DNA from: Candidatus Harrisonbacteria bacterium
GTDB lineage: Bacteria; Patescibacteriota; Minisyncoccia; UBA6257; 02-FULL-45-10c
DNA: 64,000 bases
NCBI GenBank assembly: GCA_016214655.1
Contig: JACROC010000002.1
Span: 67,801-131,800, forward strand
Reading direction: 5' to 3'
In this document: piece by piece, positions 56,590-58,555 of the stretch
Layout of the letters: every line of letters starts with the position of its first letter
Position numbering within the stretch: position 1 is the first letter of the stretch
The notes under the pieces: generated by a model
The model's input: only the letters and a program-made list of their open reading frames with translations
Told to the model about the DNA's origin: nothing
The model's database searches: none
Translations under genes and position numbers: made by a program

Positions 56590-58555
56590 TGTTTAATTGA
56601 TCCACGCACAGCTTCCGCTACGCGTGCCTTGTTACGACTTCTTCCATGTCACCAAGCTTACCTTAGTTCCAGCGAACTGAAGTTTCAGGTACTCCTGGCT
56701 CCCCTGAAGTGACGGGCGATTATCTTCTTTAAAACTAAGAATTGATGTTCCCACTCCCGACGCACTATCAAAAAATTATGATAATGAAGTCGGGATCCCG
56801 ATTTTTACATCGGGACGCACGGACGGATTTCCCGTATGCGGCGAGCTCAAAAATATTTTTATTTTCGAGTAGTTCCCTTCATCCGCATTAACTGCGAACT
56901 ACTATGGACTAGCTGACTTCTGAATAAAGCAATAGTTTCTTAATCTTTACTCAGATCTCCTAAGGTCAGTCATAAAACTTTTCCTTACATTCTCAATGTG
57001 GCTTTTCTTTTGATTTTCGCTACGCTCACCACCCAACCATAGCTCAATCACCACTTTGTTTTTTAAGACTGTAATTTGCTTCCAGATCCTCCATCCCGAC
57101 CCTCGCGGCGTCGAGACTATCTTTCCGCTACGCTTCGATAGACAATCGAAGGAATTGATTTGAACAATTTAGTTTTATAACCTGCTTAGCGCTTTTATTG
57201 TGAGTACAGGACTCGAGAACGTATTCACCGCGGCGTAGCTGATCCGCGATTACTAGCGATTCCGACTTCATGAGGGCGAGTTGCAGCCCTCAATCTGAAC
57301 TGGGGCCAGTTTTTTGGGATTAGCTCCGCCTTGCGGCTTAGCAGCCCATTGTACCGGCCATTGTAGCACGAGTGTAGCCCAGGGTATCAGAGGGCCATGC
57401 GGATTTGACGTCATCCCCGCCTTCCTCCCCCAAAAAGAGGGCAGTTTCCGATGACACTTGTAACATCAGATAGGGGTTGCGCTCGTTACCCCACTTAAGG
57501 GAACATTTCAAAACACGAGCTGACGACAACCATGCAGCACCTGTCCAGCCGTCCTTGAGAGACTACCAACGTTTCTGCTGGTATTCGTCTGGATTTCTAA
57601 CCCTGGTAAGGTTCCTCGCTTACTGTCGAATTGAACCTCATGCTCCACCGCTTGTGCGAGTCCCCGTCTATTCCTTTGAGTTTTAGCCTTGCGGCCGTAC
57701 TTCCCAGGCGGTCCACTTAACGCGTTAACTTCGCCACTCCGAGGGTCGATACTCGAAATAGCCAGTGGACATAGTTTAGGGCGTGGACTACAAGGGTATC
57801 TAATCCTTTTTGCTCCCCACGCTTTCGTGCTTGAGAGTCAGGAATGCGCCAGCTAAATGCCTTCGCCTTTGGTATTCCCCACGATATCAACGGATTTCAC
57901 CCCTACACCGTGAGTTCTATTAGCCTCTCGCACCCTCTAGTTTGACCATGTCCATTGCAGCTCCAAAGTTAAGCCTTGGAATTTAACAACAGATGCGTCA
58001 AACCTCCTACGCACTCTTTACGCCCAATAAATCCGGATAACGCTTGGAGCCCTCGTATTACCGCGGCTGCTGGCACGAGGTTAGCAGCTCCTTATTCCCA
58101 TGGTACCATCACAAAAGTTTTTCCCATGGAAAAGCAGTTTACAATCCTTAGACCTTCTTCCTGCACGCGGCGTCGCTCGATCAGGCTTTCGCCCATTGTC
58201 GAATATTCTCGACTGCTGCCACCCGTAGGTGTACGGACCGTGTCTCAGTTCCGTCGTTGGGGATCAGCCTCTCAGCCCCCCTACTGGTCATAGCCTTGGT
58301 AGGCCATTACCCTACCAACTAGCTGATCAGACCTAGGCCAATCTCAAAGCCCCTTGCGGGTTTACTCTTGCGAGACTATCAGATATTACCCCACCTTTCG
58401 ATGGGCTATGTCTGACTTTGAGGTATGTACCAAGGTGTTACTAACCCGTTCGCCGCTAACCAGCTCTTGATATAATCTCAAACTGATTCGCACGACTTGC
58501 ATGCCTTATCCACGCCGCCAGCGTTCATCCTGGACCAGGATCAAATCCTCTAAAA
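56590..58555 (-). rRNA. rrs: 16S ribosomal RNA gene, ~1.96 kb including a 480-nt insertion; no linked 23S or tRNA downstream
   Basis: The 5' end AGAGGAUUUGAUCCUGGUCCAGGAUGAACGCUGGCGGCG (rc of ~58513-58551). The 530 loop GUGCCAGCAGCCGCGGUAAUAC, the 1390 region GAAUACGUUCUCGAGUCCUGUACUCACA, and the h45/3' region GUCGUAACAAGG...GGAUCA (ending ~56598) were read on the minus strand. Confidence 0.9.
56719..57198 (-). other. 480-nt insertion (probable self-splicing intron) in the 16S gene between ...GUACUCACA and CGCCCGUCAC... (E. coli ~1397-1400)
   Basis: Flanking exon sequences align with the universal 1390-1410 region. The insert has no ORF. Confidence 0.65.

Follow-up and report, generated by a model that had tools for sequence, protein, structure and literature searches.

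A group IIC-like intron in the 16S rRNA gene of a Candidatus Harrisonbacteria bacterium, and relatives which share a two-hairpin insertion in putative domain V

Group II intron-like insertions in the 16S rRNA genes of bacteria from the Candidate Phyla Radiation (CPR) have been reported by Tsurumaki et al. (2024, J Bacteriol) only at position 1400, referred to as 16IS9, where 39 of the 53 cases carry LAGLIDADG genes, 14 have no open reading frame (ORF) and none encodes a reverse transcriptase, with the ORF-bearing and ORF-less forms highly similar outside of the ORF (PMC11270868). A 2026 survey describes rns-1396, a family from four genera of the Thiotrichaceae which is built on a IIC backbone and carries a LAGLIDADG gene of a single motif in domain IV (D4); a 5' terminal linker is common to all members, exon-binding site 2 (EBS2) is absent, and domain V (D5) is the most conserved part (PMC13190283). 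Outside of the bacteria, fungal mitochondrial rRNA introns splice 1–33 nt upstream of their GUGYG motif, and in the same introns the pairing between exon-binding site 1 and intron-binding site 1 (EBS1–IBS1) is altered and EBS2 and the branch site are lost (Li et al. 2011, via PMC4424553, Zimmerly & Semper 2015). Here we describe an insert in the 16S rRNA gene of a Candidatus Harrisonbacteria bacterium (GCA_016214655.1, contig JACROC010000002.1, positions 67,801–131,800; we refer to the whole of this 64-kb stretch as the window), which lies at 16S position 1400, matches an Rfam group II model, and is an ORF-less member of the published 16IS9 family. We are largely confident that it is a compact ORF-less group IIC-like intron of a LAGLIDADG-associated family, from which the D4 endonuclease gene has been lost. 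Such an intron is ordinary for CPR bacteria, and the original prediction for this locus, made from the sequence alone, was right to note that insertions in CPR 16S genes are known. The part which is undescribed, as far as we have found, is the interrupted D5 that it shares with at least 41 environmental relatives.

The minus strand from 58556 to approximately 56590 carries the single bacterial 16S rRNA gene identified in the window by Rfam searches. The alignment with RF00177 (SSU_rRNA_bacteria, 1312.9 bits) runs down from 58556 and misses the true 3' part of the gene because of the large insertion, and when this part (56718..56590) was searched separately it scored 70.7 bits against model positions 1391–1533. 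With the insert the gene is about 1.95–1.97 kb long and the joined exons come to 1472 nt. The 5' exon (57200..58556, minus strand, E. coli positions ~1–1399) ends in ...GAAUACGUUCUCGAGUCCUGUACUCAC at 57200 (a longer stretch of the same end reads ...CCUGUACUCAC) and its final five bases, CUCAC (57204..57200), make up IBS1, while the 3' exon (56590..56718, minus strand), which extends from C1400 to the 3' end and includes helices h44 and h45, starts with CGCCCGUCAC at 56718. In the coordinates of the Rfam model the exon CAC occupies 1388–1390, and as the C which follows in the model (1391, E. coli C1400) aligns with C56718, A57199 is the first base of the intron and does not belong to the exon. 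The C57200/A57199 boundary is also supported by the exon-binding loop, which pairs with CUCAC and stops at C57200. This gives an insert of 481 nt (57199..56719) exactly between E. coli C1399 and C1400. The original prediction had therefore recognised a real insertion in a gene of the correct length (~1.96 kb), beyond which universal 16S sequence resumes, and had placed its 3' end correctly and its site within the range of 1397–1400 now narrowed to 1399|1400, but had started it one base too late (57198, giving 480 nt). It had also raised the possibility of an assembly chimera, which we dismiss because dozens of independent contigs have homologous inserts at this site.

There is no notable ORF within the insert (the longest sense-strand ATG ORF has 16 aa and the longest overlapping ORF in any frame 49 aa), in agreement with the earlier statement that it encodes no homing endonuclease, and the RNA is strongly structured with a minimum free energy (MFE) of -149.7 kcal/mol (z = -6.5 compared to shuffled sequences). 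The choice between group I and group II models falls to the latter. RF01998 (group-II-D1D4-1) matches 56950..56874 with 37.9 bits in a local search (gathering score 35, E = 3e-5) and also matches the relatives L099 and L116 (L numbers denote the loci we fetched for comparison), and a second group II model, RF02001, matches domain I (D1) in the 5' half weakly with 13.7 bits. A group I intron was ruled out, as there was no match to an Rfam group I model at E<=10, and the exon ends with C and the intron with U. The RF01998 match (56874..56950, minus strand) covers the 3' strand of domain II (D2), the junction J2/3 stretch CAGAAGUCAGCUAGUCCAUAGUA, and the domain III (D3) hairpin with GAAGGG, and corresponds to the CAGAAGUCAGC..CAUAGUA, D3 hairpin and GAAGG arrangement found throughout the family. 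We favour class IIC because of this RF01998-matching, IIC-like J2/3–D3 region and the CGC triad of D5. RF00029, the model for D5 and domain VI (D6), had no match at E<=10 in the window or in the 105-nt canonical D5–D6 stretch of a relative, and no gathering-level matches in nine relative loci; as it is silent on a canonical relative too it is uninformative either way, and the D5 assignment rests on position, shape and invariance rather than on a curated model.

The consensus fold of twelve ORF-less members of the family produced by RNAalifold contains 87 pairs, 63 of which show at least one compensatory double change, and the window copy forms 80 of the 84 family pairs which were counted, as do its relatives. 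The whole element (56719..57199; all features are on the minus strand) begins with a 5' terminal linker, AAUAA (57195..57199), followed by AAGCG (57194..57190), which the family alignment identifies as a degenerate equivalent of GUGYG, so the canonical motif is not found at the 5' splice site itself. Across the family this linker is 5–10 nt long, A-rich and variable, and the GUGYG-equivalent is GUGCG in L003, L085, L106 and L112 and AUGCG or ACGCG in many others, and is followed by D1 sequence resembling CCCGGCAG. D1 (56960..57189) has a closing stem (57189–57185 / 56964–56960) and internal stems in the RNAalifold consensus, and EBS1, GUGAG (57025..57029), sits in the loop of one of its hairpins, which reads GG(U/C)GGUGAG in the family. 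The D2 hairpin (56915..56959) follows from the consensus fold, in which both D1 and D2 have good support. D4 is a 24-nt hairpin (CUCGAAAAUAAAAAUAUUUUUGAG, 56846..56869) at the place where family alignments put the LAGLIDADG ORF of the relatives, and its flank UUGAGCUCGC is identical to that of ORF-bearing relatives. No reverse transcriptase or maturase is encoded there, with no ORF in the window and LAGLIDADG_1 proteins instead in relatives. D6 (56722..56746), reached through an AAC linker, consists of 3 bp, an AA bulge on the 5' strand, 5 bp and a 7-nt loop, with all pairs covarying; its 3' strand is fully paired and has no bulged branch-point adenosine, which is the case throughout the family. 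AAU (56721..56719) then leads to the 3' splice site, and the intron ends ...GAUAAU with the AY expected for a group II intron (family members end with AAU, AUU or AUC).

Nucleotides before the GUGYG motif, the missing bulged adenosine and the rRNA host gene are the features of the mitochondrial introns described by Li et al. (2011), so that the odd 5' end and D6 of the window insert are family traits with functional precedents. The mitochondrial introns, as they are treated in the review PMC4424553 (citing Li 2011 and Mullineux 2010), likewise reside in rRNA genes and are LAGLIDADG-associated or ORF-less, but they are fungal and of structural class IIB1, whereas here the host is bacterial and the core IIC-like, and the convergence is presumably independent.

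We searched one genome per GTDB species for relatives with the exon- and J2/3-anchored pattern TGTACWCAC N{263,293} AGAANTCAGC. This pattern is loose, with about two thirds of the matches listed being chance matches, and the true loci were filtered by script, leaving at least about 33 true homologues at the same 16S site. Together with those from metagenomes there are ~70 homologues, all of them in 16S rRNA genes at 1399|1400 or 1402|1403 and mostly from Patescibacteria, and these point to a group IIC-like ribozyme with a LAGLIDADG gene in D4 of the relatives, in support of the intron first suggested for this locus. The Patescibacteria hosts among the matches listed include Nomurabacteria, Staskawiczbacteria, Paceibacterota, Parcubacteria and metagenome-assembled genomes (MAGs) labelled Saccharibacteria, and the other hosts among them are Gammaproteobacteria (L002, from the Nevskiaceae, L060 and L101) and an Anaerolineae MAG (L095). 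The majority of relatives have a D4 ORF of 140–160 aa where the window has its short hairpin, and those of L178 and L210 each contain a single Pfam LAGLIDADG_1 domain (E = 4e-13 and 5e-20). The introns are typically 795–898 nt long, with shorter examples of 414, 431, 569, 646 and 648 nt and a full range of 414–980 nt. The closest relatives of the window intron derive from Patescibacteria MAGs and groundwater metagenomes, the relatives being from samples of the Rifle and Hainich type, and the spliced window 16S is at most 85.6% identical to any of the fetched loci, the nearest named ones being a Parcubacteria-group MAG (L067, 81.7%) and a MAG labelled Saccharibacteria (L071, 81.6%).

The variation within this family makes it hardly conceivable that the insert is an expansion segment kept in mature 16S rRNA: the relatives differ freely in length and sequence, and some have a protein gene and others do not, whereas their rRNA flanks are invariant, and 481 nt between C1399 and C1400 would lie inside the decoding centre. 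Brown et al. (2015) also reported that CPR rRNA inserts are absent from transcripts (as cited in PMC9297842).

The family matches 16IS9 in gene, site and host group, in being recognised by Rfam group II models, and in being either ORF-less or associated with LAGLIDADG_1. The 16IS9 study classed its introns by Rfam matches and ORFs, and the passages which deal with them include no secondary structure, EBS1–IBS1 pairing, 5' linker, 1402|1403 site or D5 insertion (PMC11270868). The Thiomargarita rns-1396 introns (Salman et al. 2012, via PMC13190283) are alike in their IIC-type backbone, 5' linker, single-motif D4 LAGLIDADG gene, lack of EBS2 and location in bacterial 16S near the decoding centre, and our family also has gammaproteobacterial members; the published site is 1396 and ours 1399|1400, a comparison by number only, and the account of rns-1396 in the relevant parts of PMC13190283 mentions neither ORF-less nor D5-insertion forms.

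In all of the 70 non-redundant introns for which both ends were available, the final five bases of the exon have their exact reverse complement, EBS1, in the D1 loop. Where the exon ends with ACUCAC the loop reads GUGAG (46/46), where it ends with ACACAC, as it does in the non-CPR hosts and in L186, EBS1 becomes GUGUG (5/5), and in a sister subfamily with exons ending ...CACCGC the same loop reads GCGGU (19/19); the chance of a given 5-mer occurring within that 150-nt stretch of D1 is ~0.15. This three-state EBS1–IBS1 covariation indicates that C1399 is read by the ribozyme as the end of the exon despite the GUGYG-like motif several bases downstream, and for a bacterial intron of the IIC-like kind it pins the splice site upstream of that motif. 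Judged from the sequences of both subfamilies, the G immediately 5' of EBS1 could pair with the base that opens the 3' exon (C1400 in the window).

These pairings also bear on the alternative that the insert is an intervening sequence (IVS) excised by host RNases of the RNase III type and left unligated, with the 3' ~130 nt (h44–h45) of the rRNA existing as a separate piece. Bacterial rRNA genes, notably those of reduced genomes, are known to contain IVSs which fragment the rRNA (in the account given in PMC11270868), yet the insert is located in the single-stranded h28/h44 junction and not in a helix-capping loop, and an RNase III substrate would have no need of EBS1–IBS1 covariation, an invariant D5 core or covariation from D1 to D6. 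We consider this explanation very unlikely.

The sister subfamily is inserted three bases downstream at 1402|1403, between a 5' exon ending ...ACUCACCGC and a 3' exon starting CCGUCAC... (members are L124, L127, L131, L136, L141, L145, L148, L151, L155, L161, L163, L176, L180, L185, L189, L195, L202, L207 and L210). This looks like a shift in splice site or homing site achieved through a re-registered EBS1, in which a 3-nt move downstream is accommodated by the same D1 loop. Two of the fetched loci have peculiarities of their own. The D5 3' strand of L060 contains CGCCCGUC, which mimics the start of the 3' exon, and naive boundary calling consequently shortens this intron to 795 nt instead of 840 nt; mimicry of this type is a trap for the automated annotation of family introns. 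In L010, a Paceibacterota MAG contig, the segment from D5 through D6 to the 3' exon occurs twice on the minus strand (3046–3150 and 3273–3377, 227 nt apart), and either a duplication, the nesting of a partial copy or an artefact of the assembly might explain this.

D5 is considered the unchanging catalytic centre of group II introns and is equated with the internal stem-loop (ISL) of U6. The group IIC intron of Oceanobacillus iheyensis, which serves as the crystallographic model, shows a CGC triad, in which the central pair is G.U, and its J2/3–D3 region reads CAGAAGUCAGC...CAUAGUA. It is similar in size to the window intron (~400 nt without its ORF), and differs in having GUGUG at the splice site, terminators as targets, a continuous 34-nt D5 and a parent which encodes reverse transcriptase. 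In our family D5 takes the form CUCGC-NNNNN / NCGG-GAAAU-CCGN / 2-nt bulge / NNNNN-G-U-GGG, with a 10-bp lower helix, a 4-bp upper helix, a 5-nt loop and a 2-nt bulge on the 3' strand; the middle G of the CGC triad is paired with U, and the variable pairs covary while the triad region is essentially invariant. Family alignment, a segment-by-segment parse and pair counts place the putative D5 of the window copy, including its insertion, at 56750..56845. It has the 5' strand CUCGCCGCAU with the triad at 56843..56841, an upper hairpin ACGG-GAAAU-CCGU, the bulge CC (56822–56821), and a 3' strand in two pieces: GUGCG (56820..56816), which pairs with CGCAU, and GUGGG (56754..56750), which pairs with the triad-containing CUCGC. 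Between these, opposite the catalytic triad, 61 nt (56815..56755) interrupt the strand and form two hairpins, H1 (56796..56815, UCCCGAU-GUAAAA-AUCGGGA) and H2 (56755..56795, UCCCGAC...GUCGGGA with an inner stem UAUCA/UGAUA). A canonical 34-nt D5 starting from the bases right after GUGCG was also considered for the window and was dismissed, as inspection revealed no pairing.

Only L066 had a similar D5 insertion among the GTDB matches listed, and for this reason we undertook one metagenome scan aimed at such insertions, looking for D5 loops with UGGGAAC a further 42–72 nt on. Parsing removed canonical introns, in which the second UGGGAAC is located in h44, and unrelated sequences (L128, L158, L165 and others), and 41 distinct D5 regions with an insertion of 38–63 nt were kept. 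These are divided between the two sites (23 at 1399|1400 and 18 at 1402|1403) and are found in both endonuclease-sized (17) and ORF-less (8) introns, with the remainder incomplete. All 40 of the unique inserts fold as exactly two top-level hairpins which cover 91–100% of the insert, with a mean MFE z-score of -5.0 and values below -2 in 39 of them. In a hand-checked seed alignment of eleven sequences 97.4% of cells pair compared to 26–44% with slid partners, and a covariance model built from this seed aligned 79 matches, 57 of them distinct, for which 96.1% of cells pair (32–45% for slid partners) at a covariation score of 0.508 (compared to 0.06–0.07), and both-sided changes are seen at all seven pairs of H1 and all seven of H2. 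As the larger alignment was fitted to the model, the alignment-free fold count of the 40 inserts serves as an independent control.

The position of the module is narrowly defined, with 36 of the 41 inserts located between the partner of the 3' C of the triad and the partner of the triad G, and the other five (the window, L178, L186, L202 and L206) one base upstream of that point. The H1 loops are often GNRA-like or GAAA-ended (AUGGAAA in ten, AUAGAAA in six, and also GUAAA, GUAAAA, GCAAG and GAUAA), and for this reason the module may be an accessory with a stabilising effect. Of the full-length relatives, L126 (472 nt, 72% identity) is the closest to the window intron; it is ORF-less and has the same D5 module. 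The same type of H1 and H2 is seen in the 949-nt, endonuclease-bearing L178, where the inner stem of H2 stays paired by means of altered base pairs (UAUUG/CAGUA, with one wobble).

In a neighbour-joining tree of the D1–D3 region the module-bearing introns are interleaved with canonical ones and the ORF-less forms are likewise scattered, although this is an indication only as the tree is crude, distance-based and drawn from a short alignment. Close pairs also differ by a clean indel, with L157 reading GCUACG[51 nt]UGGGAAC and L098 GCUACGUGGGAAC, and L070 differing from L157 in the same way. The sequences are compatible with either a module which is easily gained and lost or the recombination of intron halves during endonuclease-driven homing. 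Interleaving and clean indels would also be expected if H1–H2 were a separate small mobile or palindromic element which had been repeatedly inserted and was not a part of the ribozyme, and a similar TCCCGA...TCGGGA hairpin does occur elsewhere in the window at 24044. However, the position of the module is constant to within 1 nt, it always has two hairpins even though the sequence has diverged widely with compensatory changes, and it is present in both insertion-site subfamilies, while recombination of intron variants during homing would scatter the module too. We think a separate element unlikely, though it is the alternative we take most seriously. The hairpin at 24044–24064 (plus strand, TCCCGATTGTTGTTTTCGGGA) is intergenic and has the same stem as H1 and H2; we considered it as an extra copy of H1 and have left it as a probable unrelated and ordinary terminator.

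As modelled here, the 61-nt module turns D5 into a four-way junction. The conservation of this structure in 41 distinct relatives makes it most likely that the module can coexist with catalysis, the lower and upper halves of D5 being predicted to stack coaxially, and since covariation maintains it in 16S genes which are otherwise intact and come from many samples we argue that the module-bearing introns are probably functional. Our reading, which we hold tentatively and at slightly less than an even chance, is that a splicing-competent lineage of group II introns may keep a two-hairpin insertion in D5 at, or within 1 bp of, the top of the triad helix, and might serve as a natural one-piece model resembling U2–U6. 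In the U2/U6 core the catalytic helix is broken opposite the triad, between helix Ib and the U6 ISL, and helix II and U2 stem I emerge there. In topology, helix Ib, the U6 ISL, helix II and U2 stem I would correspond to the lower and upper parts of D5, H1 and H2, respectively. The intron is a one-piece, single-stranded and bacterial RNA, no sequence similarity is claimed, and the parallel is one of analogy and not of homology or descent. The break in the U2/U6 catalytic helix has been called 'perplexing' in the part of a review which considers it (PMC4424553). Literature searches, with most subscription journals outside of their scope, found no published description of insertions in domain V.

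In the working we propose for the window intron, GUGAG in the D1 loop would pair with the exon CUCAC and fix the 5' splice site despite the five linker bases before the GUGYG-like motif, and D5, with its CGC triad and CC bulge, would form the active site together with J2/3. Coaxial stacking of the lower and upper parts of D5 would keep the catalytic geometry, with H1 and H2 projecting sideways. The first step would most likely be hydrolysis by water and not branching, given the 5' linker and the lack of a bulged adenosine in D6, and the second would ligate the exons and restore the CUCAC-CGCCCGUCAC of the decoding centre. Because the endonuclease is absent this copy cannot home, and as an immobile element it would simply have to splice.

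Several points weigh against a working group II intron at this locus. RF00029 is silent in the window and in a canonical relative, and the intron has neither a branch adenosine nor a canonical GUGYG at its splice site. Furthermore, the basal D5 helix CUCG/UGGG is essentially invariant, being paired in 57/57 rows at three of its positions and in 56/57 at the remaining one, with a single G–C variant, so that covariation cannot confirm it across the 61-nt insertion. We infer catalysis, and with it splicing, the hydrolytic route and exon ligation, from comparisons of sequence, a ribozyme with an insertion beside its catalytic triad might in principle be disabled, and a second, intron-less 16S copy is possible beyond the 64 kb seen.

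Taken further, these points would make the insert a degenerate and catalytically dead remnant, and the 16S would be either a pseudogene or in need of a second rRNA gene or of a factor acting in trans; the interrupted D5 and the view being limited to one 64-kb window would agree with this. We nevertheless regard a dead remnant as improbable. In the window copy the triad, bulge, J2/3 and EBS1 are all intact, 80 of the 84 counted consensus pairs form, and the exons score as normal 16S. The D5 module is found with compensatory changes in endonuclease-bearing and ORF-less relatives alike, a pattern which decay would not be expected to generate, and the missing GUGYG and branch adenosine are family-wide and are seen also in functional mitochondrial introns (in the passages of PMC4424553 on these).

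If the module-bearing introns do splice, then the catalytic helix tolerates an interruption beside its triad, and protein-free introns of 450–520 nt would provide small natural constructs for testing extra helices, a question which bears on ribozyme engineering and on models for the path from D5 to U2/U6. The D5 variant would then be a natural one-piece model of a broken catalytic helix en route to a fragmented and trans-assembled active site. More immediately, the intron lies under the region of the 1392R/1406-type universal primers and adds to the known under-detection of CPR lineages.

We note some further features of this gene and its surroundings. The 3' tail of the 16S (56590–56612, minus strand) reads GGAUCAAUUAAACA and is missing the anti-Shine-Dalgarno CCUCC; among the fetched loci, most of which are from Patescibacteria, 48 of 56 distinct 16S 3' ends are likewise without it. 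No 23S or 5S rRNA or tRNA genes were found across the window, and the 16S is not part of a linked rRNA operon within it. Approximately 150 nt downstream of the 16S 3' end there is a ~155-nt structured element (56290–56445, minus strand; MFE z = -7.0) in which a long closing stem, AAAAAGGUUUACUU...AAGUAAACCUUUUU, surrounds two hairpins, and which matches no Rfam family. The 16S gene is adjoined by a type IV pilus-like cluster (51116–55273, minus strand), assigned by eye, with a prepilin which has the N-terminal motif MAIKGFTLLELVIVIGILAILG, a PilB-like ATPase of 567 aa and a PilC-like membrane protein of 402 aa, and after the cluster comes a 122-aa response-regulator receiver, also recognised by eye.

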